Assembly: GCA_020057885.1 (NCBI GenBank)
Contig: JAGVEX010000009.1
Location: 36,704 to 100,703 of the forward strand
Direction of reading: 5' to 3'
DNA length: 64,000 nucleotides
Source of the DNA: a bacterium
GTDB taxonomy: Bacteria > Patescibacteriota > Patescibacteriia > Veblenbacterales > UBA10138
Shown here piece by piece: positions 1,329 through 61,939 of this stretch. The notes under the pieces are model-generated. The model was not told where the DNA came from and searched no databases. It saw only the letters and a program-made list of their open reading frames with translations. The translations under genes and the position numbers were made by a program. The stretch's first letter is position 1. Each line of letters starts with the position of its first letter.

Positions 1329-2033
1329 TTATTCTGGTTTACTAAGCATAATATCTTGAAATAATTCTGACTGGTGAGCTATTAACTGACGTTGTTTTAC
1401 CAGCTCCAAGAGCGCTAAAAATGAAACAATGACTTCAGTTTTATCTTTTGCTTTAGCAATAAATGTTTCCCAGTTTAAATGTGCTTTGTCTAAAATTAAC
1501 TTTTTAAGTGTAGTTATTTTTTCTTGAATGGAAATTGCGCGCTGTAAAGTGATTTCCGGAAGTTTAATAATTGGCTCTAAGGCCGCTATTACTCGCCTAA
1601 TCCCCTTTTCAATTAACTCTAATACTAATCCTATTGGCGCCGTTGGTTTAGAAGATTCAAGTTTAATAAGTAAAGGTTTTTCACGTACCCAAGCCACATG
1701 GCTCTGTCGCCACATTTTAGCAATTTGCTTGCCAGCTTCCAAATATTCTTTATAAATTTTAAGTTGGCGTTCAAGATCCTGTGCTTCCTCCTGCCCGCCC
1801 AAATTAAGAGAAGGTAATAAATAACGCGATTTAATAAGCAACAACTTAGCGGCTATTACCAAAAAATCCGCCACCTCTTCCGGGTTAAGCTCCTCCACTT
1901 TATCCAGATATTCAAGATACTGATCTGTCACTTGCGCTAAAGCAATCTCGGTTATATCAAGCTCCTCCTGTTCAATTAATTGAAGCAGAAGGTCTAGTGG
2001 TCCTTGAAATTTTTCTAATTTAATTTCGTACAT
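1329..2033 (-). CDS. scpA: segregation and condensation protein A
   Basis: 234 aa; N-terminus FQGPLDLLLQLIEQEELDITEIALAQVTDQYLEYL is canonical ScpA. Confidence 0.85.
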   Translation of the reverse strand: MYEIKLEKFQGPLDLLLQLIEQEELDITEIALAQVTDQYLEYLDKVEELNPEEVADFLVIAAKLLLIKSRYLLPSLNLGGQEEAQDLERQLKIYKEYLEAGKQIAKMWRQSHVAWVREKPLLIKLESSKPTAPIGLVLELIEKGIRRVIAALEPIIKLPEITLQRAISIQEKITTLKKLILDKAHLNWETFIAKAKDKTEVIVSFLALLELVKQRQLIAHQSELFQDIMLSKPE

Positions 2034-2056
2034 GAAAAATTTAAATCTTACAAAAT

Positions 2057-2530
2057 TTACTTTCTCTTCTTGGCAAAGTTCACTAATTTACCCTCTACCA
2101 CTTTTAATAAATCTTTTGTTTTCATATGAAGCGAACTTTCAAAACTACCCGCTTGCACCACTGCTTTTTGCGCTTTCATTACTGCCTTATCTACATACAC
2201 CGGCAATTTATGCAAAGGGCCATGAAATGGTGAAATAGCACCTGGCTTAACTTTAAAAAGTTTTATCATTACATTTTCTCTATCAATATCAACTTTTTTG
2301 GCACCGGTAACTTTTTTGAGCGCCTTAAAATCAACTTGGTGTGAAGCTGGTAAAACTACCAAGGCGTGATCTTTATCAATTTTAACTACCAATGTTTTTA
2401 CCACTTCATTTAGTTTGCGTTTTAATGTTTGGGCTAAATCATAAGCTGTGAATACGGTACGGTGTTCTAACATCTCGTGTTTAATTTTATTTTTCTTTAA
2501 AAAATTTAAAACTTTCGCTGGAATCTTCAT
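2057..2530 (-). CDS. YbaK/ProX-family aminoacyl-tRNA deacylase (Cys-tRNA(Pro)/Ala-tRNA(Pro) editing domain-like)
   Basis: 157 aa; motifs HALVVLPASHQVDFKALKKVTGAKKV and GAISPFHGP resemble the YbaK/ProRS INS-editing fold. Confidence 0.5.
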   Translation of the reverse strand: MKIPAKVLNFLKKNKIKHEMLEHRTVFTAYDLAQTLKRKLNEVVKTLVVKIDKDHALVVLPASHQVDFKALKKVTGAKKVDIDRENVMIKLFKVKPGAISPFHGPLHKLPVYVDKAVMKAQKAVVQAGSFESSLHMKTKDLLKVVEGKLVNFAKKRK

Positions 2531-2542
2531 AGTAATAATAGG

Positions 2543-2851
2543 TTAAAAATTAAAATTAACAATTCCCTGTAACCAAGGCAATACAGGAACGTTGAAATAA
2601 GACAAAATAATTATAACTAAAGCCGCCAAGACCGCCAACATTAAAAGCTTGGTTACAATATGTGTAACAACTTTAAGCACTAACAATAAAACAACTACCA
2701 CTGCCAAACCTAAAGCCCACTGGGGTAAATCTTGGTCTAATTTCCAAGTTTGTCCGCCGCCTAAATTAATCCAAAGTTGCGGTAGGGTTACATAAGAACC
2801 AACAAAAACACCAATAATGGTTAGCCATTTGAGCGCGCGAGTAAAAAACAT
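2543..2851 (-). CDS. small integral membrane protein (3 predicted TM helices), unknown function
   Basis: 102 aa, strongly hydrophobic segments. Confidence 0.4.
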   Translation of the reverse strand: MFFTRALKWLTIIGVFVGSYVTLPQLWINLGGGQTWKLDQDLPQWALGLAVVVVLLLVLKVVTHIVTKLLMLAVLAALVIIILSYFNVPVLPWLQGIVNFNF

Positions 2852-2870
2852 AATATAATAAATCTTAAAA

Positions 2871-3188
2871 TTATTTGCTTACCTTTTTTAATTTAAAAGG
2901 AAAACACTGCTGTTCACCAAGTAATTTACGTGCTACTTTACGCCCTGCCGGCATAAGCTTAACCTCTTTGATATACCACTTTTTAGGAGTGCGTACTCCA
3001 TAACCAACCATTAAACCTTTATCTATTAAACTTTCAAAACTTTTAGTAATGATATTAACTATATCATCAATTTTTGGTTTAGTTTTTTGTTGATCATAAA
3101 ACTTTGCAAAGCCACCTCTCGACACTGCTCTCGGCGGAGTAAAATAACAACTGCGTAATATGTATTTTTGCAAAGGTGAAAGACGCAT
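2871..3188 (-). CDS. hypothetical basic protein
   Basis: 105-aa ORF, Lys/Arg rich; no recognisable motif. Confidence 0.3.
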   Translation of the reverse strand: MRLSPLQKYILRSCYFTPPRAVSRGGFAKFYDQQKTKPKIDDIVNIITKSFESLIDKGLMVGYGVRTPKKWYIKEVKLMPAGRKVARKLLGEQQCFPFKLKKVSK

Positions 3189-3210
3189 AATTAATAACTA
3201 TTAATAAATG

Positions 3211-4260
3211 CTAATTAGGGGCAACAACAGTACAACGCATGTCGTGCCGGTAAAACTGTTCACCCTGTTTGTTTAGCCCTTTCGCTTTCATATCAAAACA
3301 ATAACTACCGGGAAAAGTAGTGGTTTTATCAAATTTAACACCATAGTAACCATCGTTAGTATTGTTATCACCATGCTGACCATCGTCTAATAAAACCAGG
3401 TTGGTTACTACTACATCAACAGGCAGTGAAGTTTGTGTACCTGGACTGGTTCCTGTTTCTGTTTCTTTATTAATATTTCCTTTGTTTCTAAGGCTATCAT
3501 ATGCTTTTACTTCAAGTTCAACTTGTGCACCTTTTGCTGGCTCACCGGCTTGATTTACTATAGCAAGAAAATTTATCGCATCACCAAGGTGATACGTTTG
3601 TTTAGTTAGTTCGGCATCAAAAGAAAAATCTAACACAAGATTGGTGCCCACTAACAAATCAACAAATGGTACTTCACGATCTACTGATCCAGTCACCTGA
3701 ACTGTCCACTCACCCACCAGTGGTTCATAAAGACGATAAAATTCATAATGATCACTTTTTACCCGTTCAGTCACATTCTTGTACTCTGAATAATTATTTT
3801 GGTTAATAACCTTACCATTCGGCTGAATAAGCTCCATTGTAAAATTCAAACCATCAGCCATCCAACTAACAGGAAATTCGGCATAGCCAACGCTTGAATC
3901 AATTACATATTTAGTTATAACACGCTCATTACCAACTTCCTGATTGATTGGTTGCACTAAGGCATTGGGACGATTAAAACTAGGTCTAGATGATGTTGTT
4001 GTATTTATTGGTTCAATATCAGTGTTAGTTGGTGGATTTTCTTCTTCAATCACAACCAACCCCCCTGCCCCTTGTTTTGGTTGAATATAACCCTGTAATC
4101 GTTCAGCTATTCTTTCATCAACAGTTCCACCAAGACCATTATTGGTTTTGAATGGAGATGATGAAAATAACAAATTGTGTGCAAAAGAGTATAAAACAAC
4201 AACTGCAGTTGTAGTAGTTAAAAAAGCCACCGTTATTAAAATTTTTTCTCTAAGTACCAT
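3211..4260 (-). CDS. N-terminally anchored secreted/surface protein, unknown function
   Basis: 349 aa with one N-terminal TM helix (ILITVAFLTTTTAVVVLYSF) followed by a polar extracytoplasmic domain. Confidence 0.45.
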   Translation of the reverse strand: MVLREKILITVAFLTTTTAVVVLYSFAHNLLFSSSPFKTNNGLGGTVDERIAERLQGYIQPKQGAGGLVVIEEENPPTNTDIEPINTTTSSRPSFNRPNALVQPINQEVGNERVITKYVIDSSVGYAEFPVSWMADGLNFTMELIQPNGKVINQNNYSEYKNVTERVKSDHYEFYRLYEPLVGEWTVQVTGSVDREVPFVDLLVGTNLVLDFSFDAELTKQTYHLGDAINFLAIVNQAGEPAKGAQVELEVKAYDSLRNKGNINKETETGTSPGTQTSLPVDVVVTNLVLLDDGQHGDNNTNDGYYGVKFDKTTTFPGSYCFDMKAKGLNKQGEQFYRHDMRCTVVAPN

Positions 4261-12618: not shown

Positions 12619-13239
12619 TTAGGGAACTTCTGTAGACGGGGTTGCGCCATTAAACTGCCACTCCAAAAAACTAGCTATCGTGGCGTCATAATGAGCAGTA
12701 TGTTGAAACGCCTTAAGAGCTAATTGCTCACGAGTTGATGGTGTAATACCGCCATTTTGTATCTCAGAGATTATTAATTTATAATCATTTGGATCGCATA
12801 CTACCGCGACCCTTTCGTAATTTTTAGCAGCCGCCCGCAGTAGAGATGGTCCACCGATATCAATTTGCTCAATTGCTTCTGCTAAAGCAACATCAGGTTT
12901 GGATATTGTTTGTGCAAACGGATAAAGATTAACCACCACCAGATCAATGAGCCCGGCTTTGATCATTTGTATTTGCTCTAAATGTTCTGGTGTTTGTTTG
13001 GCCAAAATACCGGCAAACACCTTGGGGTGCAATGTCTTTACTCGCCCACCAAGAATTTCTGGCGAACCAGTGTACTCTGAAACTTGAATAACGGGAATCT
13101 TCCATTGTTGAAACAAACTAGCTGTACTGCTAGTCGAAATAATCTCATAACCAATGCTGGAAAAAAACCGGCCTAATAAAACTAAACAATCTTTATTAGA
13201 CACTGAAATTAAAGCGCGCTTAACTAATTGGTTTATCAT
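12619..13239 (-). CDS. purH: standalone IMP cyclohydrolase domain (PurH N-terminal MGS-like domain only)
   Basis: 206 aa; ALISVSNK...GGRVKTLHPKVFAGILA...DLVVVNLYPF...IDIGGPSLLRAAAKNYERVAVVCDP is collinear with E. coli PurH residues ~1-200. No AICAR transformylase domain follows. Confidence 0.75.
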   Translation of the reverse strand: MINQLVKRALISVSNKDCLVLLGRFFSSIGYEIISTSSTASLFQQWKIPVIQVSEYTGSPEILGGRVKTLHPKVFAGILAKQTPEHLEQIQMIKAGLIDLVVVNLYPFAQTISKPDVALAEAIEQIDIGGPSLLRAAAKNYERVAVVCDPNDYKLIISEIQNGGITPSTREQLALKAFQHTAHYDATIASFLEWQFNGATPSTEVP

Positions 13240-13398: not shown

Positions 13399-13435
13399 CT
13401 TGACAAAAATATTTTAAAAGTTTAAGGTATAGAGC
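13399..13435 (+). promoter_or_regulatory. sigma70-like promoter (TTGACA-N17-TAAGGT) for the GC-rich micro-operon
   Basis: ttgacaaaaatattttaaaagtttaaggtataga read directly. Confidence 0.3.
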
Positions 13436-13482
13436 TCTTTAAAAACCAATACCTTTCGGTACCTGCTGGCCTCAAATATTTG

Positions 13483-13587
13483 ATGCCAAAAGCTACTGGA
13501 AGGGCAACGCGCAAAAAACGCGTTGGCAGACTGGGAGTTCGTCGCCCCAGCGTCACCAAGCTCTTCTGTTTAATATTAATGCTCTAA
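13483..13587 (+). CDS. small highly basic peptide (34 aa)
   Basis: MPKATGRATRKKRVGRLGVRRPSVTKLFCLILML; GC-rich relative to flanks; 4 nt before the next ORF. Confidence 0.25.
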   Translation: MPKATGRATRKKRVGRLGVRRPSVTKLFCLILML

Positions 13588-13591
13588 ACCT

Positions 13592-13756
13592 ATGTATAGA
13601 GCATTCACAGGGGCTTTAGCGCTGGCTCTGGCATTCCTAGTGCTGAATTGGACCCTTCCCGAGTTGGCAACAGCGTTTGTAGAAGTAGCGTTAAAAACGT
13701 TACATCTCTTAAGCGCGGCGCTAGATTTAGTGCTACAAAAAATGCCAACTCAATAA
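13592..13756 (+). CDS. small hydrophobic/amphipathic peptide (54 aa, one predicted TM helix)
   Basis: MYRAFTGALALALAFLVLNWTLPELATAFVEVALKTLHLLSAALDLVLQKMPTQ; stop abuts an intrinsic terminator. Confidence 0.3.
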   Translation: MYRAFTGALALALAFLVLNWTLPELATAFVEVALKTLHLLSAALDLVLQKMPTQ

Positions 13757-13761
13757 AAACT

Positions 13762-13799
13762 AGAGGCTATGAAAATTTCATAGCCTCTTCTCTTTTTTG
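13762..13799 (+). terminator. rho-independent terminator
   Basis: agaggctatga-aaatt-tcatagcctct followed by tctcttttttg. Confidence 0.6.
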
Positions 13800-13824
13800 T
13801 AAAAACGAATAAATTTACAACCAA

Positions 13825-14622
13825 CTATTCAATACGGTAATTTAAATTTATCTCAATAATAACTTCTTGAGTACCAGTAGGCAAAACAGGTGAAGATACC
13901 GCGCCAGCACCGCCGCCTTTACCATCTCCACTATAACTGCCATAAGATTGAATACCCGGGGCCTGCACAATATTTTCCCACCAACCCATAATATCTCCAA
14001 GCTCTACTCCTACTGCTTGCGCCAAAGCGCCGGCTTTGGATTTGGCATCGGCAATAGCCTTAAGCCTTGCCTCTTGTTTAAGATCATTCAAATTGGCCAC
14101 ATCAAAAGTAATTCCCATAACTTGATTGGCGCCGGCTTTGGTAGCCGCCGCTACTACTTTTGAAACACTTTCCTTGTTATCGTTTAACTTGCGTACTTTA
14201 ACTGTAAGCTGCTGGTTGGCGCTATAGCCAGCTGGAATAGATATGCCGTCTTTATAATCATACTGAGGATAAAGTGTATAATTTTGCGTTTCAATATCAG
14301 CTTCTGTAATTCCTAGCAATTTAATAGCCGTTACTACTTTATTCATTTTATCATTCAACTGTTGTAAAGCGTTTTCTGCAGAAAATTGTTTATCAACCTG
14401 CACACCCAGATTAACATTAGCTATATCGGGCTGATAAGAAACTTTGCCCAAGCCAGTTACCGATACCTGATATTGCGGCTGATTGACAATGCGATCACGC
14501 AAAATAGAAACTGTAATAATACCAGTGAGCAACAACATGCCTAAAATCGGCAAAATAATCTTTGGTTTTAACCACTCGCCGCAGCAATGGCAACTAGATT
14601 CATTGTTTTGATTGTTTTCCAT
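13825..14622 (-). CDS. SIMPL/DUF541 (YggE-like) periplasmic protein
   Basis: 265 aa; N-terminal anchor; ...QNYTLYPQYDY...ARLKAIADAKSKAGALAQAVGVELG...EVIIEINLNYRIE pattern typical of DUF541. Confidence 0.65.
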   Translation of the reverse strand: MENNQNNESSCHCCGEWLKPKIILPILGMLLLTGIITVSILRDRIVNQPQYQVSVTGLGKVSYQPDIANVNLGVQVDKQFSAENALQQLNDKMNKVVTAIKLLGITEADIETQNYTLYPQYDYKDGISIPAGYSANQQLTVKVRKLNDNKESVSKVVAAATKAGANQVMGITFDVANLNDLKQEARLKAIADAKSKAGALAQAVGVELGDIMGWWENIVQAPGIQSYGSYSGDGKGGGAGAVSSPVLPTGTQEVIIEINLNYRIE

Positions 14623-14812: not shown

Positions 14813-15625
14813 ATGGATGCAGAAAACACATCTCCCAAAAAACCGTGTCTGGAACAAATTCCAGCAGCTATTAAAATTTTAATATCAATGTTCCTGCTAA
14901 TTTGGCTGGGCGCGCTGGGCCTTGACCGTGCTATGCAAGCTGGCATTAATTGGAAAAACCTCGCTCACTGGCAAAATCCGCGCAGTACCAACGACACTAT
15001 CTCGGTAACGGCACAAGGCAAAGTAACCGCCATTCCCGATGTCGGACTTATTTCACTATCTGTGGAAAGCCGAAATAAGACAGTGACCGAAGTGCAAACT
15101 GATAACACTAAAAAAATGAACCAAGTGGTCGATTATTTAAAAGGACTTAAGATTGAAGACAAAGATATTAGCACCACTCAATACAATTTATATCCTATTT
15201 ATTCCTACGAACAAAGGACTGGCAAACAAAGTTTAGATGGCTATCAACTTACCCAAACAGTAGAAGTAAAAATTAGAAATCTTGATAAGGTGGGTGAAGT
15301 GTTAAGTGGCAGTATTGAACGCGGCGCTAACCAAGTTGGCCAACTGACTTTCTCTATAGATGATCCGGAAAAATTACAACAAGAGGCACGTGTTAAAGCC
15401 ATAGCTAAAGCACGGGCCAAGGCTGAAACTTTGGCTCAAGCCGCCGGAGTAGATTTGGGCAAAGTAAGATCCTTCTCGGAAAATGTTAATAACCCAACGC
15501 CATACCCAATGTACTACGCGCGCGATATGGCGGTGGGTATGGAAAGCAAGGCAGTAGCACCTCAAATAGAGGCCGGCAGTCAAGAAGTAATTGTGAACGT
15601 AACTTTGAGTTACGAAATTGAATAA
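14813..15625 (+). CDS. SIMPL/DUF541 (YggE-like) protein, divergent paralog
   Basis: 270 aa; same architecture (TQYNLYPIYSYE...ARVKAIAKARAKAETLAQAAGVDLG...EVIVNVTLSYEIE). Confidence 0.65.
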   Translation: MDAENTSPKKPCLEQIPAAIKILISMFLLIWLGALGLDRAMQAGINWKNLAHWQNPRSTNDTISVTAQGKVTAIPDVGLISLSVESRNKTVTEVQTDNTKKMNQVVDYLKGLKIEDKDISTTQYNLYPIYSYEQRTGKQSLDGYQLTQTVEVKIRNLDKVGEVLSGSIERGANQVGQLTFSIDDPEKLQQEARVKAIAKARAKAETLAQAAGVDLGKVRSFSENVNNPTPYPMYYARDMAVGMESKAVAPQIEAGSQEVIVNVTLSYEIE

Positions 15626-15647
15626 ACTAATTTCTGCCCAATTAACC

Positions 15648-15696
15648 ATCGGGGAAAAATAAGCGATCGCTTATTTTTCCCCGATGTTATTTTAAT
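15648..15696 (+). terminator. perfect 39-bp palindrome / intrinsic terminator
   Basis: catcggggaaaaataagcgatcgcttatttttccccgatg followed by ttattttaatt. Confidence 0.55.
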
Positions 15697-15720: not shown

Positions 15721-15760
15721 ACAAAACTACTTTCTTATTCGCGCGAATAAGAAAGTAGTT
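15721..15760. repeat. perfect 40-bp palindrome
   Basis: aaaactactttcttattcgcgcgaataagaaagtagtttt. Confidence 0.5.
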
Positions 15761-15997
15761 TTAAATTGCTATAATTAATGGCCAATGGTAGTAGTACGGC
15801 CTCGACCTGGCGGATGATAAGGTGGGGATAGCTTGGCGCGTTTGGCCCCCTCGGCCTGGCGTACTTTAAAGGATGAAGGTGTGCGAAACCGCACTACTCG
15901 TTTATTGCTTTTTGATGAATAGTTACGCATATTGTTATTATATCACACAACTAAAGTAACTTTGAAAAGTTACGAAATGTAATACGGGGTGTTAAAA

Positions 15998-20616: not shown

Positions 20617-20760
20617 AAAGCCCCGTGTTAGCTAGGCCTTGCGACCCCATACCGGTTTCCCGGTATGGCCCAATGACGAGTTGCTGAACACGGGGTTCAG
20701 TATCGTCATTGGGTCTTATGCTGCCATGCCCACAGCAGAGTCGTGGGTTTAGGCAATTAA
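20617..20760 (-). ncRNA. GC-rich highly structured 5' leader / ncRNA candidate (riboswitch-like)
   Basis: Nested perfect hairpins: CCAUACCGG-GAAA-CCGGUAUGG (GNRA loop), CCCAAUGACGA...UCGUCAUUGGG enclosing CUGAAC-CCCGUG-UUCAG, CUGC...GCAG, plus a possible pseudoknot CCCCGUG/CACGGGG. Lies directly upstream of the 20586 start. Confidence 0.3.
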
Positions 20761-36498: not shown

Positions 36499-37053
36499 TT
36501 AATTCTTACTAAAAGGGAAGCCCAAAAGTTCAAATAAACGTTTTCCCTCTTTTTGTGTAGCAGCTGTAGTAACAATAGCCATTTCCAAACCGTGAATATT
36601 TTCTAATTCGTCTGAACGAATTTCTGGAAAAACCATGTGTTCGTGAAAACCGATTGATAAATTTCCCTTTGCGTCAACTGATTTTGTTGGCAAACCACGA
36701 AAATCACGCACGCGAGGCAAGGTGATATTTACTAACTTACCAATAAAATCATACATTCTTTTGCCACGCAATGTTACCATTGCGCCCACCACCATACCCT
36801 GACGAATTTTAAAATTAGAAATAGATTTACGAGCCTTAGTGGTTACCGGTTTTTGCCCAGCTATACGAGTTAAAGTTTTTACAGCCACCTCTTGCAGCTT
36901 AGCATCTTTGGAACTCTGGCTTAATCCAACATTAAGCACTACCTTAACTAAACGTGGTACGGCCAAATTATTGGTATAGCCAAACTCTTGTTTTAGCTTA
37001 GGCACTATTTCACGACTGTATAAATTATTTAAATTGATTTCGCTAATACTCAT
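36499..37053 (-). CDS. rplE: 50S ribosomal protein L5
   Basis: 184 aa. Confidence 0.9.
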
Positions 37054-57564: not shown

Positions 57565-57740
57565 AATCTTTCACCTGCCTTTCATGCGGTAATGTATTGA
57601 TTGTTAATGAATTATTTTTGTTTTAATAATAAAGTTTTAGCATAAAACTAATAATAATTCAAATATCTAAATATGCCTTTTAAACAAAACTCCACGGGCT
57701 TATGCCCGTGGTTTAAGTAAAGTATTATGGTATATAAAAA

Positions 57741-58150
57741 CATACCAATGGTCGGGGTGGAGGCCTGCCTGCGACTCGATTGAGCTCGTCGAAATCCGGC
57801 AGGCAGGGAGTCGCCCATAAACCACAATGGTTCAGGGCGCCCTGAACCGCGTTCCGCTCCGCGGAACTCTGGTTCTAGGGCGAACCCTCTGTCACACCCT
57901 CCGGGGTGAAATTATTTATTCTGAATCATCTCATCAGAGTCGGGGTGGAGGGAGTCGAACCCTCTGTCACACCCACCCCAAGGGTGCATGTTACCGGTAC
58001 ACCACACCCCGACCCTGATGAGATTTTTAAAAAATGTACACCCGTGAAAGCTGCAAGTTTTCGCTTTCACCCCCGCGGATGCTTAAAGTTGCCGGCTTGC
58101 CCTGTACCTCCGCCAAAGGCGGATGGTGCAGGGTACACCACACCCCGACC
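57741..58150. repeat. tRNA-Pro fragments and GC-rich perfect palindromes flanking the intact tRNA-Pro
   Basis: 3'-end fragment gtcggggtggag at 57741-57752; anticodon-to-T-arm fragment at 57883-57905; 5' acceptor/D-arm fragment at 58128-58150; perfect hairpins ggaacgcggttcagggcgccctgaaccgcgttcc. Confidence 0.5.
57940..58011 (-). tRNA. tRNA-Pro (anticodon GGG), no encoded CCA
   Basis: Minus strand CGGGGTG-TG-GTGT-ACCGGTAAC-ACAT-G-CACCC-TTGGGGT-GGGTG-TGACA-GAGGG-TTCGACT-CCCTC-CACCCCG-A; anticodon loop UUGGGGU. Confidence 0.7.
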
Positions 58151-58164
58151 ACTAGTATGTTTAT

Positions 58165-58192
58165 AAGCAAAAAAGCCCAACGGGCTTCAATG
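58165..58192 (-). terminator. strong intrinsic terminator (minus strand)
   Basis: agcccgttgggct followed by ttttttgc on the minus strand. Confidence 0.6.
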
Positions 58193-58608
58193 TAACATTA
58201 TTTCCCTAAAATTAAAAGCCCTACCATCGGTTTGATACAATTGGAGTTCCTGTGAATCAAGTTGGGTTGGTTCTAAAGGCCGCTGGGGCCAATGAGGGTG
58301 TGTTCCTTACTCCCACTGTTCCATACTGCCTCTACCCCTTTACCGCTTGGTGTTCTCGAACTTATGCCCAAGGGCATAAATTATACTGAACCCCTATATA
58401 TTGAGATTGTAGAGCTCAATAAATATCAAACCATGTTGGATAGAGCTATTATTAATGATAGCGCAGATTAAGCAAGTTGTCAAGGCAATAAAATGAAGTT
58501 TTTGGCTAAGATTAGCCTTTTTTAAGTAAGTTAGCCAAAAATAAAAGGGGCGAATTTTTCGTCCCTTTTTTAAGCAAAATTTTATTGTTTTTTATGAATA
58601 TTTTTTCA

Positions 58609-58932
58609 CTATGACGGCCCCCACGAAAACCCGCCACTAATACCTAAGCTAGCCTTGATCATATCATAAATAAATCCCCTTAATACGCCTTTATAATTAT
58701 AATAAAGATCATTTTTGGTTTCGCGAGGAATAACATCTATTAATTGATTCAAATTAGTTTTAGAATTTTGAAATTTCTTCTCCGCTTCCGACACTGCGTC
58801 ATAATAACTCTGCAATTCACATATTGCTGCGGGTGTACCGCCTTCTTTTAAAATTTTCTCTATACGAGCCTTTAGTCCCTCTCTAGCGCTTAACAAAAGA
58901 ATCAACTCATTATTTGGCTTTTCCATAATCAA
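58609..58932 (-). CDS. hypothetical protein
   Basis: 107-aa ORF. Confidence 0.35.
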   Translation of the reverse strand: MIMEKPNNELILLLSAREGLKARIEKILKEGGTPAAICELQSYYDAVSEAEKKFQNSKTNLNQLIDVIPRETKNDLYYNYKGVLRGFIYDMIKASLGISGGFSWGPS

Positions 58933-58952
58933 CTCCTTTCTTTTTTTTTGTT

Positions 58953-59279
58953 TTAAATAAACCCTTTCCCGACCACTGCCTGATCTGAGTTGGCTGAAAA
59001 ACTATTATCACAATCAATGTCTAAAACATATGGCAACGGCAAGGAAATACTTTTTTTACATTTTGATTTACTTGAAGTATGTTTTTTACCGCTGAGTTTT
59101 TCAAAGTTAAGTTGGCTGTTTAAACACATCTGACGAATTAATTCTCTGCCTTTTGCCATAGCCGGCGTAACTAAATCCTTATGTTCTGCAAAATGCGCAT
59201 TTACATCGGCGCAAAGAAACATAAAAGATTTAAGCATAAACTTAGCTACTTCAACTTCCTGTTTTTTGGGTTTTGACAT
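58953..59279 (-). CDS. hypothetical protein
   Basis: 108-aa ORF, Lys/Cys rich. Confidence 0.35.
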   Translation of the reverse strand: MSKPKKQEVEVAKFMLKSFMFLCADVNAHFAEHKDLVTPAMAKGRELIRQMCLNSQLNFEKLSGKKHTSSKSKCKKSISLPLPYVLDIDCDNSFSANSDQAVVGKGFI

Positions 59280-59461
59280 ACGTTACTCCTTTTATTTTTA
59301 TTTTTTAATTTATTTAATTTTCAAAGAACCATATAACAAAAATGCCTTCTAAAATAATCCAGAAGGTATTGAAACTTTAAATCTAATTTTGTATCTACAA
59401 CAACTCAGCTCCAAGCCTTCTAATCAGAGTCCGCCACCAATAAAAGTTGCTATGATTTATA

Positions 59462-59773
59462 TTAAGCATATTTTCTAAGTAATTCATTAAACCCATTATT
59501 CTTACTATATTTAAGTTCGCGTGAACCGCGTTCTACTGTGGCTATCGCCACACCCAAACGATAAGCAACTTCGCGAATAGATAAACCCTTGCTAAGCAAC
59601 TTAACTATCTGCCAACGCAAAGCCAACTCATTATACTCGCCTGGTGTTAATAAATCACCTAAAAATCTGCTAATCTGTCCGGCTGACTTTAGGTGAGCAA
59701 ATAAGCCAACCAACTCCTGTTGAAAAGCACGCTGAGCCTGGGGCTGTTTTTTAACTAATTTATCTCGCGCCAT
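59462..59773 (-). CDS. TrpR-family (YerC/YecD-like) DNA-binding protein
   Basis: 103 aa; LLTPGEYNELALRWQIVKLLSKGLSIREVAYRLGVAIATVERGSREL matches the TrpR/YerC HTH. Confidence 0.7.
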   Translation of the reverse strand: MARDKLVKKQPQAQRAFQQELVGLFAHLKSAGQISRFLGDLLTPGEYNELALRWQIVKLLSKGLSIREVAYRLGVAIATVERGSRELKYSKNNGFNELLRKYA

Positions 59774-59801
59774 AATCCAATAATCATTATATATTAGCTA
59801 C

Positions 59802-59838
59802 TCCTATACTATTGTACTAGTACAATAGTATAGGAGTC
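59802..59838. promoter_or_regulatory. perfect 37-bp palindrome with TrpR-operator-like ACTAGT core, 29 bp upstream of the TrpR-family gene
   Basis: ctcctatactattgtactagtacaatagtataggag. Confidence 0.5.
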
Positions 59839-59971
59839 AAATAAAGTCAAGCATCCCAAGCTAAACTGAATAAATAATTCCCCTACTCAAAATAAAAAGG
59901 TTCCTTGTTATGGAACCTTTAAAAAGATGGTTATTTTGAAATTATTTTTGTTTTAATTAAACATCTCTACT

Positions 59972-60148
59972 CTGCCTAAGCAGTCCAATTTGTCCACCAA
60001 TCCAATTCTGGCCTGTCTATTAACAATAAGCGACTGGATATTATGCAACCACGGCAGGAACAAAATTCATCTCGCATAAAATATGATAGTGAATAATGTT
60101 CACCGCTATGTTGACAATAATATAACATCTCAGCATTATTACTGATCA
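59972..60148 (-). CDS. small Cys-rich peptide (58 aa), translationally coupled
   Basis: MISNNAEMLYYCQHSGEHYSLSYFMRDEFCSCRGCIISSRLLLIDRPELDWWTNWTA; strong SD AAAGGAGGT lies 7 nt upstream inside the stop region of the preceding gene. Confidence 0.4.
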
Positions 60149-60151
60149 TAA

Positions 60152-60499
60152 TTAACCTCCTTTAATTGGTAACTTAACTGGTAACATAGAATCTAGGGCG
60201 TGAACTGACATTGAATGGGAGTCTTTGGCGTCTGGAAGAACAGCACTAAATTTATCACTAAATGGATCATGTTCTTGATGTAAACGGCTTTTTTCAACTC
60301 TCAAATCACCACTGGGTGATACACAATAGTTCTTAAAAGGAAGCAGGGTGCAATCTGGTGAAACAATAGCACAATCAACCTGTAAGCATTCTAGTGCGCA
60401 TGTGATATTATTTATTGCCAAAAAATGTCCATGGAAAGCAGTTATCACTTGGTATGTAGGCTCAGGTGCCTGTTGTTCTGTTTTTATTTCGTCAGACAT
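60152..60499 (-). CDS. Cys-rich small protein (115 aa)
   Basis: CALECLQVDCAIVSPDCTLLPFKNYC cluster; overlaps upstream gene by 8 nt. Confidence 0.45.
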   Translation of the reverse strand: MSDEIKTEQQAPEPTYQVITAFHGHFLAINNITCALECLQVDCAIVSPDCTLLPFKNYCVSPSGDLRVEKSRLHQEHDPFSDKFSAVLPDAKDSHSMSVHALDSMLPVKLPIKGG

Positions 60500-60731
60500 G
60501 AAAGTCCGTCCTCTCTTTTTCTTCTTTAGTGATTGATGAGTTATCTAGTTGTTCATTTTGCGTTTGTGATATGGGTAACATACAAGGAATGTTATCTGTG
60601 CTAATGTTTTCTGCAAAAATACCAGTTTGGCTGGCTCCGCACTTAGTACAATATAGTGCGGTTTTATCCAAAAAATATCCACAATTGCCACATTTCTTAA
60701 TATTATTAGTACTAGTCATGACAAACCTCAA
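60492..60731 (-). CDS. double zinc-ribbon small protein (79 aa)
   Basis: CGNCG...CTKCG. Confidence 0.45.
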   Translation of the reverse strand: MRFVMTSTNNIKKCGNCGYFLDKTALYCTKCGASQTGIFAENISTDNIPCMLPISQTQNEQLDNSSITKEEKERTDFHV

Positions 60732-61024
60732 AATAGTTTATTGAATTGGTAATTTATTAATTTGTTAAAAGGCTATGTTGTAACGAAACAACCGCTCTTT
60801 TTTGAGAGCGGTTGTGGAATTTACGAAATTTATCTGAAACTAGTGTATTATTTCATTATCCTCGCCGCTCTTGCGTTAATAATAGTAATAAGACCAAGTA
60901 TAATATCTTGGTTCTTACACACGAGCGACTTGTAGCTTAAATTGAACATAAATTTAGGATGTTACAATGCATATTAACATAGCTAAAAATTGTGTCAACG
61001 GGTAAACTTATCCACAAAAACAAA

Positions 61025-61056
61025 ATAGCGACAACATTTTTACTGTCGCTATTATT
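61025..61056 (-). terminator. intrinsic terminator
   Basis: aatagcgaca-gtaaaaatgt-tgtcgctatt then ttgtttttgtgg on the minus strand. Confidence 0.5.
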
Positions 61057-61067
61057 TCAACTATAAA

Positions 61068-61187
61068 TCACAATTTATTCGCACCAGGGCGTGGCCTTAT
61101 ACCCTGAGCTGCTGGGAGATTATATGTGATTCTTTTTTTGCGGCGTATTTTTTTACTCCGCGGCACCTTTTTCTTTGTGTTTTTCAT
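61068..61187 (-). CDS. tiny highly basic peptide (39 aa) with canonical SD
   Basis: MKNTKKKVPRSKKIRRKKRITYNLPAAQGIRPRPGANKL; AAGGAG 8 nt upstream; terminator immediately downstream. Confidence 0.35.
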   Translation of the reverse strand: MKNTKKKVPRSKKIRRKKRITYNLPAAQGIRPRPGANKL

Positions 61188-61215
61188 AACTACTCTCCTT
61201 TGATTATTTGTTTAA

Positions 61216-61464
61216 TTATTTATTTTTTGGTTTTAAGGAAACATATTTCTCTTCAATTTGGCGGTGCTGCTTTCGCAGATAACACTGTTTTATTTTTAAT
61301 TGACGCCATTCTCGCGCCGCTAACATTAAATCATGCTTGGCTTTCAATTCTTGTTTTATATTTTGACAAGCAATCTTAATCTCTATAAGTTGCTTATGTA
61401 AATCTTGAATGGTTGTTTCTTCTTTAATAGTTGTTCCTGCTGCACCATTGTTCCATAAAGACAT
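61216..61464 (-). CDS. hypothetical coiled-coil protein
   Basis: 82-aa ORF. Confidence 0.35.
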   Translation of the reverse strand: MSLWNNGAAGTTIKEETTIQDLHKQLIEIKIACQNIKQELKAKHDLMLAAREWRQLKIKQCYLRKQHRQIEEKYVSLKPKNK

Positions 61465-61939
61465 GGCTAACTCCTTTTAAAAGTGACTGATAATCAATTG
61501 TTAATTTACATTTTAATTTTATTTAAAACAAAAAGCGCTTTTCGCCCTAAAGCATCCGAGAGAGAAGAAACTTCTCTAACAGAAAATCTTAAGGACGAAA
61601 AGCGCTTTTCAAATTGTAAAACACTTTCCGCGGTACCACCCTGATTGGCTAATAACTAATGGCAACCTGCCTATAGCATTAACCCTCTTTATGCACTCCC
61701 AAATTTATGAGATATACACTTATTCTATAACGGGAACTCCCGTCCTTATCTAATATTCAAAAAATGAAATTCAATAAGGCAACTCCAGAGGGAACTTCCA
61801 CTAAAATACCCCGGAAAATGCTCACAATCAAGGCATTTTCTCCCTGTACAGGATAAATAAAGTGTACTTTCCTCTTTCACTGTTTTTAACTAATTTCTAA
61901 AAGAACAACCTGTAAAAACTATTATACACCCAGTTAAAA

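Follow-up and report, generated by a model that had tools for sequence, protein, structure and literature searches.

In a window of 64,000 nucleotides (nt) of DNA from a bacterium of the Patescibacteriota (Veblenbacterales, UBA10138; contig JAGVEX010000009.1 of assembly GCA_020057885.1, forward-strand positions 36,704 to 100,703), we analysed a short unit on the + strand that lies in the spacer between a purH-like gene and a SIMPL gene. With moderate confidence we read it as an autonomous transcription unit in which the mRNA of a 54-residue membrane protein carries a folded leader that gates its start codon, and in which an exchange of pairing among four short boxes could open the fold. The identity of the parts, namely the gene, its protein family, the helices of the leader and the occluded start, we hold with high confidence. 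The original prediction, made from the letters of the window, had described the unit as a GC-rich micro-operon of two tiny open reading frames (ORFs) encoding a membrane-active toxin and a partner peptide, or else as a structured non-coding RNA (ncRNA).

The 54-codon ORF (13592-13756, + strand) encodes the peptide MYRAFTGALALALAFLVLNWTLPELATAFVEVALKTLHLLSAALDLVLQKMPTQ. A first protein search returned 8 further clusters with 61-77% identity, in which the first 20 residues were invariant and the homologues were 53-54 amino acids (aa) long, with the exception of an 84-aa gene call whose start lies upstream of the conserved Met. With profile searches, the family grew to more than 50 clusters (clustering at 90% identity), and an exhaustive scan of cluster representatives gave 38 matches. 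Nearly all homologues are 51-57 aa long, the longer entries being upstream-extended gene calls; the named sources were hypothetical proteins from Parcubacteria group bins, Candidatus Veblenbacteria, Candidatus Falkowbacteria and Patescibacteria. A metagenome scan with a degenerate hydrophobic pattern derived from the peptide alignment found at least 6 loci, 2 of them new. At the DNA level we compared 13 distinct lineages, in which the whole unit is conserved. Among 45 columns for each codon position, 10, 23 and 1 were invariant at the first, second and third positions, respectively; the median pairwise dN/dS was 0.17, and synonymous sites were saturated. The concentration of variation at third positions, together with the low dN/dS, indicates selection on the protein. 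By this pattern of substitution, the 54-codon ORF is a genuine gene.

AlphaFold2 modelling with 36 sequences gave two helices, residues 2-21 and 23-49 (mean pLDDT 86), with a break at the invariant Pro23. Helix 1, the most conserved part of the peptide, has a hydropathy of 1.9-2.1, sufficient for a membrane span. Helix 2, with its high hydrophobic moment, is strongly amphipathic, and the charge of the peptide is neutral to slightly acidic. The product is therefore predicted to be membrane-bound, with an N-terminal transmembrane (TM) helix, a kink at the invariant proline and a C-terminal amphipathic helix, in agreement with the hydrophobic 54-aa membrane peptide proposed originally. Pfam assigned no family to any of 10 family members, NCBIfam gave nothing above noise, and PADLOC gave no match. 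A profile search of the PDB had its best match at an E-value of 0.07, on the TM segment, and Foldseek returned no matches against the PDB; plasmid and phage collections did not match the family. In the literature we found no description of a small protein or leader of this kind from the candidate phyla radiation (CPR). Both the protein family and the leader RNA described below are absent from current family databases.

Judging from its flanking signals, the gene appears to be transcribed on its own, as an autonomous unit of ~360 nt that runs from a sigma-70-type promoter to an intrinsic terminator and has the 54-residue protein as its single product. The spacer that holds it extends, in the ORF list, from the purH-like ORF (12619-13239, - strand) to the SIMPL ORF (PF04402; 13825-14622, - strand), and its length of 585 bp was given correctly in the original prediction (edges 13239 and 13825). 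At the promoter (13400-13428, + strand), the -35 element TTGACA (13400-13405) and the 17-nt spacing are present as had been claimed, but the -10 element, TAAGGT (13423-13428), matches the consensus at only 3 of 6 bases, which qualifies the claim of a good promoter; for the same reason an automated promoter scan of the sequence did not list this pair. Transcription would start near 13435. Of 12 informative lineages, 7 have the motif TTGACA-N16/17-TAnnnT at the homologous position and 9 have TTGAC there. The full motif lies at -185 to -192 from the ATG in the window and in lineages L092, L095, L099, L103 and L104; in L113, where the first leader hairpin carries an insertion, it is found at -231. 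L082 and L096 have the -35 variants TTGACT and TTGACC, both with a 17-nt spacing. The promoter is credible because the motif recurs at the homologous position across lineages.

At the other end, the terminator (13762-13798, + strand) begins 5 nt past the stop codon and consists of a 12-bp stem, AGAGGCUAUGAA / UUCAUAGCCUCU (13762-13788), followed by a U run. A stem and a U run are found 3' of the stop codon in 13 of 13 lineages, with compensatory changes in the stem. A terminator scan called a terminator here on both strands; since a run of A precedes the stem, it can also terminate the convergent SIMPL gene. The intrinsic terminator, and the self-contained nature of a unit that has its own promoter and terminator, were thus both claimed correctly, and both signals are found at homologous positions in relatives.

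We then turn to the RNA. The + strand of 13430-13800 (371 nt) folds with a z-score of -9.3 against shuffled sequences, and the - strand with a z-score of -5.2. Base pairs that are conserved and compensated among the lineages show the first ~155 nt of the mRNA to be a conserved cis-acting structured leader, and this leader precedes the same ORF at every locus compared. All of its elements are on the + strand. In hairpin P1 (13452-13503), the base, CCUUUCGGUA (13452-13461) paired with UACUGGAAGG (13494-13503), carries a conserved box 1 (CCUUYC) and box 2 (GGAAGG), and the distal part is variable; 6 of 10 pairs show changes on both sides, and 98% of alignment cells are paired. Hairpin P2 (13505-13525) is the perfect hairpin caacgcg-caaaaaa-cgcgttg, with an A-rich loop, that had been pointed out in the original prediction, and it proved to be conserved: compensatory changes affect 8 of 9 pairs, as many as 4 pair types occur at one position, and pairing holds in 99% of cells. 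Hairpin P3 (13531-13550) has the stem CUGGG / CCCAG and the apical loop AGUUCGUCGC (consensus AGUUnGUCGC). Compensatory changes occur in 5 of its 6 pairs, 100% of cells are paired, and the loop sequence is kept in 11 of 13 lineages. A linker (13551-13577) with the motif CUUCCG connects P3 to a hairpin at the start codon, PS.

Homologues folded singly gave the same series of hairpins each time, and several lineages have an extra small 5'-terminal hairpin with a CUUU loop that is not evident in the window. Independently, RNAalifold arrived at P1, PS and the terminator from an unguided MAFFT alignment, and these helices show compensatory changes. For P1, P2, P3 and PS taken together, the share of paired cells is 99.2%, as compared with 75.9% in shuffles; both sides have changed in 24 of 34 pairs, and covariation scores 0.53 as compared with 0.17 in shuffles, none of 500 of which scored as high (controls with slid partners, 0.04-0.10); these main counts come from a structural alignment that was built by hand to fit the helices and therefore lean towards structure, which has to be set against our reading. 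The hand alignment was made because MAFFT misaligned P2 and P3, N was used as padding for counting, and the first pair count was made without L110, which MAFFT had shifted.

Rfam 15 did not match the unit at its gathering thresholds. At E-values up to 10 it gave psm-mec, snoRNA and plastid matches far below gathering, the best-scoring of them over the terminator hairpin. ARAGORN found no tRNA or tmRNA in the unit. We also considered tmRNA, RNase P RNA, signal recognition particle RNA and 6S RNA and rejected them, since ARAGORN and Rfam were empty, reading the sequence did not reveal their conserved motifs, and selection acts on the ORF at the level of the protein. A scan of viral contigs with the leader pattern GGAAGG-N22-45-AGTTNGTCGCC gave 120 matches, none of which fits a hidden Markov model of the leader, so that all are due to chance.

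The start codon lies in a hairpin of two tiers. In the upper tier, PS (13578-13605, + strand), AAUGCUCUA (13578-13586) pairs with UAGAGCAUU (13597-13605, codons 2-5), with the AUG (13592-13594) in the loop. This pairing is conserved in all lineages, and PS alone has a folding energy of -10.4 kcal/mol. At its third base, the Ala4 codon covaries with a base of the leader ~25 nt upstream (UA in 7, CG in 5 and AU or GC in 2 cases), indicating that a synonymous site is constrained by RNA pairing. In the lower tier, box 3 in the linker (13563-13569, + strand; CUUCUGU, consensus CUUCCGU) pairs with codons 6-8 (13607-13613); it has complementarity to box 2 as well. When 13 full-length transcripts were folded independently, the mean pairing probability was 0.75 for this pairing and 0.95 for P1. 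In the alignment, 93% of cells are paired and compensatory changes are seen in 3 of 7 pairs; covariation scores 0.42 as compared with 0.24 in shuffles, with none of 500 as high and slid controls lower, while the count of pairs changed on both sides is weaker when taken alone, being reached by 39 of 500 shuffles. Individual events can be traced: Thr6 changed from ACG to ACA together with a C-to-U change in the linker twice, in the distant lineages of the window and L106, and codon 6 changed from ACG to AGC together with CG to GC in the linker once, in L113.

We compared this start region with those of 59 other genes of the window. The mean unpaired probability between -12 and +15 was 0.255 for the 54-codon gene and 0.47 +/- 0.12 for the others, which makes it the second most structured of 60. 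A Shine-Dalgarno (SD)-like motif within 20 nt of the start was seen in 6 of 60 window genes (ORFs of at least 120 aa), the upstream regions being AU-rich instead, and the genome appears to initiate translation largely without SD pairing. The GGAAGG of box 2 was considered as an SD sequence and rejected, since it lies ~95 nt upstream of the AUG in a genome that hardly uses SD. In an SD-poor genome whose start regions are usually open, a fold of this kind would limit or condition initiation. We infer, as the likeliest role of the leader, that it keeps synthesis of the small protein low or conditional, a reading that we consider fairly probable.

A more speculative proposal concerns how the fold could be opened. 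The leader runs through P1, P2 and P3 into the two-tier start hairpin, in which the pyrimidine box of the linker (CUUCCG) holds codons 6-8 and a second stem joins the leader to codons 2-5, leaving only the AUG exposed in the apical loop. Four boxes could then exchange partners: box 1, the 5' strand of P1 (CCUUCC); box 2, its 3' strand (GGAAGG); box 3 in the linker (CUUCC); and box 4 in codons 6-8 (GGGAG, within 13607-13615). In the resting state, 1:2 and 3:4 would be paired. If P1 were disrupted, or if its 5' strand were removed or bound, box 2 could capture box 3 and free the start region, and the 2:3 helix would then be the closing stem of a three-way junction that includes P2 and P3, possibly as a sensing domain. 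A ligand, a protein, 5' processing or co-transcriptional kinetics might act as the trigger.

The four boxes are conserved and mutually complementary. Among six candidate partners compared for the linker, the mean duplex z-score was -1.5 for box 2 and -1.4 for codons 5-9, which include box 4; the P2 loop, the P3 loop, the junction J2/3 and the 5' flank gave no consistent signal. Boxes 2 and 3 are complementary in all lineages, with a predicted equilibrium probability near 0 in every homologue. In the clade of L082 and L096, box 2 has changed from GGAAGG to GGGAGG, with box 1 reading CCUCCC and box 3 CU[A]CCC. These variant lineages fit antiparallel Watson-Crick pairing and not parallel Hoogsteen pairing, and we therefore rejected a triple helix between the linker and the base of P1. 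Taking these observations together, we regard the four-box switch as a tentative suggestion with the balance of probability against it. It is doubtful, to a slightly greater degree, that the unit represents a new, Parcubacteria-specific class of translational switch, in which 1:2 and 3:4 pairing alternates with a 2:3 junction that senses a ligand, a protein or processing and controls a lineage-wide, possibly essential small membrane protein.

Several further points weigh against our reading. The P1 hairpin is very stable (-25 to -36 kcal/mol), and with 2:3 pairing near 0 at equilibrium the switch would need an active trigger. The support for 2:3 from covariation is one coordinated change in one clade, which leaves an A bulge or a mismatch. 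The model leaves the conserved P3 loop and the A-rich P2 loop unexplained. As to the gating, the accessibility of the start varies among homologues from 0.20 to 0.51, and the AUG itself is predicted to be unpaired (0.77), so that the hairpin could present the start codon rather than hide it. Some of the 13 lineages are closely related. Finally, our statements on the ends of the transcript, on its translation and on any regulation of it are deductions from sequence.

The conserved loops and the alternative pairings could also be taken to mean that the leader is a riboswitch or a protein-binding leader, in which P2 and P3, closed by the 2:3 helix, form a three-way-junction aptamer, a ligand or protein stabilises 2:3, frees codons 6-8 and so turns translation on, and P1 is the competing off-state helix. 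Here the structure is conserved, the P3 loop (AGUUnGUCGC), the A-rich P2 loop and boxes 1-3 are conserved in sequence, boxes 2, 3 and 4 have alternative complementarity with some coordinated changes, and the leader is always 5' of the same gene. The unit shares with riboswitches and with trp-type leaders that alternate between 1:2/3:4 and 2:3 a covarying cis-leader with four complementary boxes, the last pairing of which (3:4) covers the start of the coding region. It differs from them in that it fits no Rfam 15 class, even at E-values up to 10, and has no known ligand or leader peptide; in that segment 4 lies inside the coding region and not at an SD sequence, because the genome is largely without SD sequences; and in that the 1:2 helix is far more stable than 2:3, which is never predicted at equilibrium. 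Moreover, the hairpins stand in tandem and not around a pre-formed junction, and the downstream gene hints at no ligand. Complementarity between the loops of P2 and P3 could not be established by reading the sequences: for P2/P3 loop kissing, as for pairing of the P2 loop with the U tract, we saw only AU-rich matches, which 13 sequences cannot establish, and we set both aside. On this evidence we consider a riboswitch or protein-binding leader unlikely.

How the unit is inherited bears on the toxin proposed originally. Next to the unit, the 405-aa protein, a DedA/VTT protein and the purH N-domain recur in L092, DedA in L088 and the purH N-domain in L095, and SIMPL homologues flank it in L103 and L104. 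Between the window and L092, L088 and L095, the 54-aa protein is 77%, 72% and 76% identical, respectively, whereas the syntenic DedA, purH-N and 405-aa proteins in those comparisons are 49-66% identical; the small protein is thus better conserved than its syntenic neighbours. It is encoded by a single-copy gene, with one copy per locus and per 64-kb window. As to base composition, the claim that the unit is much more GC-rich than its neighbours is true relative to the AT-rich spacer around it (0.449 against 0.27), but not relative to the two flanking genes (0.406), and the upstream 405-aa gene has 0.445. The whole window has a GC content of 0.394 +/- 0.043, and 11% of equal-sized windows reach that of the unit. 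With GC content in the normal range and neighbours that recur elsewhere, the horizontal origin suggested originally was not upheld; vertical inheritance is indicated rather than recent import, and the 54-aa family appears to be vertically inherited in the Parcubacteria (CPR).

One context is of another kind. In the marine lineage L106, the unit lies between a transposase of the insertion sequence (IS) type (rve) and a pair made of a LexA-like S24 peptidase and a DinB-type polymerase (5-949, 1614-3501); none of the other contexts seen hints at mobility or a link to stress.

A type I toxin-like module would consist of a membrane-damaging 54-aa toxin, translated from a folded and inert mRNA that is activated when 5' processing removes the 5' strand of P1, and an antitoxin small RNA (sRNA) from the opposite strand or from elsewhere. 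The tisB, dinQ and zorO mRNAs are translation-inert and activated by 5' processing, and the known type I toxins (hok, ldr, tisB, fst, aapA) are fast-evolving, patchy in distribution and often multi-copy. With the mRNAs of such systems (tisB/istR-1, dinQ/agrB, zorO/orzO, hok/sok, aapA1/isoA1) the unit shares a hydrophobic membrane peptide of less than 60 aa with a predicted TM and an amphipathic helix, a transcript of its own from a stand-alone gene with promoter and terminator, and a long, highly structured 5' untranslated region (UTR) that buries the initiation region; activation by 5' removal or re-pairing is plausible, since with four boxes so arranged the start would open on trimming of the 5' end. 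The L106 locus, with its IS transposase and LexA/DinB pair, is also in favour. However, no antisense or antitoxin partner was found at the locus, and a sigma-70-like promoter was not positionally conserved on the opposite strand among 14 aligned sequences, a result that leaves room for other promoter types or an sRNA acting in trans. The sequences that flank the unit are not conserved between lineages. Conservation above that of neighbouring housekeeping genes, synteny that is kept and a single copy are the reverse of what known type I toxins show, and the family spans several Parcubacteria lineages and not one genus. Plasmid and phage collections and PADLOC are unmatched, and the upstream ORF that might be compared to mok is not conserved, so that the coupling frame of hok/sok has no counterpart here. 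For these reasons, and because the peptide is not cationic, the role as a toxin or bacteriocin was not supported; a type I toxin-like module is in our view quite improbable, and for a bacteriocin we found nothing specific in favour.

A dual-function RNA, in which the leader would also act in trans as an sRNA that pairs with other RNAs or sponges a protein through its CU-rich and GGA-rich boxes while the 3' half codes for the protein, would account for boxes and loops conserved beyond the needs of pairing and for a gene that stands alone as an sRNA gene does. As no terminator or processing signal lies between leader and ORF, and no other target or extra copy was found in the window or the compared loci, we consider it very unlikely.

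That the whole ~360-nt transcript is a structured ncRNA, with the 54-codon frame incidental, was the alternative offered in the original prediction, and one half of it is sound: the conserved RNA structure is real, the fold is strong (z = -9.3 over 371 nt), and parts of the coding region lie in conserved helices. The other half fails on purifying selection at the codon level, for the frame, the length and the 20-residue N-terminus are kept despite saturated synonymous sites, variation falls at third codon positions with a dN/dS of 0.17, and more than 50 clusters keep an ORF of 51-57 aa. The proposed check, whether homologues keep the structure but not the frames, thus had a mixed outcome, structure being kept in the leader and the frame in the 54-codon ORF, and we give the purely non-coding reading hardly any credence.

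The second peptide of the original prediction fared no better. The 34-codon, Arg/Lys-rich ATG ORF (13483-13587, + strand) is present in the window, where it ends 4 nt before the 54-codon ORF on the same strand, as had been stated, and a two-peptide micro-operon would have this basic peptide translationally coupled to the membrane peptide. The frame runs across the 3' strand of P1, P2, P3 and the linker, and neither its presence nor its start, frame or sequence is conserved: an ORF of at least 20 aa is missing from the leaders of L103, L104 and L106, and the other lineages differ in start, frame and length. Its bases lie in stems and evolve by compensatory pair changes, which points to constraint on the RNA and not on a protein, and its Arg/Lys richness arises because GC-rich stems are read as codons. 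Judged by this comparison, the 34-codon ORF is not a gene but a chance open frame; the partner peptide was not confirmed, and the coupled micro-operon can be set aside for practical purposes.

In its presumed way of working, the unit comes closest to riboregulated genes for small membrane proteins and to the mRNAs of type I toxins, and it has too few of the defining features of either to be assigned to them. MgtS and MntS are riboregulated small membrane proteins of model bacteria. With these, the unit has in common a tiny membrane-associated protein under a structured RNA leader, while the protein family and the RNA are unrelated and the hosts belong to the CPR. The same likeness and the same differences hold for C. 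difficile, in which small proteins are encoded downstream of c-di-GMP riboswitches (bioRxiv 10.64898/2026.06.10.731418).

The architecture of the protein itself recalls TatA/TatE, which likewise have a predicted N-terminal TM helix, a hinge and an amphipathic helix within ~50-70 residues. There is, however, no sequence similarity and no match to Pfam (MttA_Hcf106) or NCBIfam; the hinge here is an invariant L-P-E/G and not of the F-G-x-K-K-L type, and the amphipathic helix is acidic to neutral. A cis-structured leader that gates a small membrane protein is a kind of arrangement already known, and what is unusual is its setting in an SD-poor CPR genome.

Parcubacteria are uncultured, ultra-small and host-dependent bacteria with minimal genomes, in which a large share of the genes has no known function. 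Being conserved above its housekeeping neighbours, a 54-residue membrane protein stands out here as a strong candidate for a core function at the cell envelope that is specific to the lineage, and proteins of this size are easily missed by annotation. The leader, as an unclassified RNA element supported by covariation, is a test case for translational gating by structure only in an SD-poor genome, and a new candidate for the discovery of riboswitches and other RNA regulators. For annotation, the unit indicates that structured RNA and coding gene can coincide in one GC-rich island within an AT-rich spacer, and that basic, Arg/Lys-rich ORFs in such islands are artefacts of GC-rich stems.

The genes that border the unit have features of their own. 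The purH gene (12619-13239, - strand) is a stand-alone gene whose short product (206-211 aa) corresponds to the N-terminal part of PurH alone; full-length PurH proteins of many phyla align with residues 2-206. The short form was also seen in L092 (1690-2325), for which Pfam records MGS and AICARFT_IMPCHas, and in L095 (1-468). Its presence beside the unit in at least 3 lineages indicates that it is not a recent truncation. Since the purH-like protein is highly conserved, a search with this neighbouring gene drew unrelated phyla: a scan of genome contigs listed 80 loci, with unrelated phyla at ~50% identity, and the element was found in none of the 80. Just downstream of the unit lie two divergent SIMPL (PF04402) paralogues (13825-14622, - strand, and 14813-15625, + strand).

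Elsewhere in the window, four regions drew our attention. The segment 15640-15990 contains two perfect hairpins of ~18 bp (15647-15686 and 15722-15763), followed by a GC-rich island at ~15775-15900 in a genome of 0.39 GC. It folds with z-scores of -6.3 on the + strand and -8.2 on the - strand, has an extended -10-like element, TGTGATATAAT, on the - strand, and is unmatched in Rfam even at E-values up to 1; we regard it as a candidate for an unannotated ncRNA on the - strand. In the interval 57600-61500 (~3.9 kb), around a tRNA-Pro gene (57939-58011), there are only ORFs of at most 115 aa, which is unusual in a densely coding window. Two known RNA families were also matched, both on the - strand: LOOT RNA (RF03000) at 20634-20755, with 79 bits against a gathering score of 46, and a T-box leader (RF00230) at 61588-61889, with 114 bits and long insertions relative to the model.

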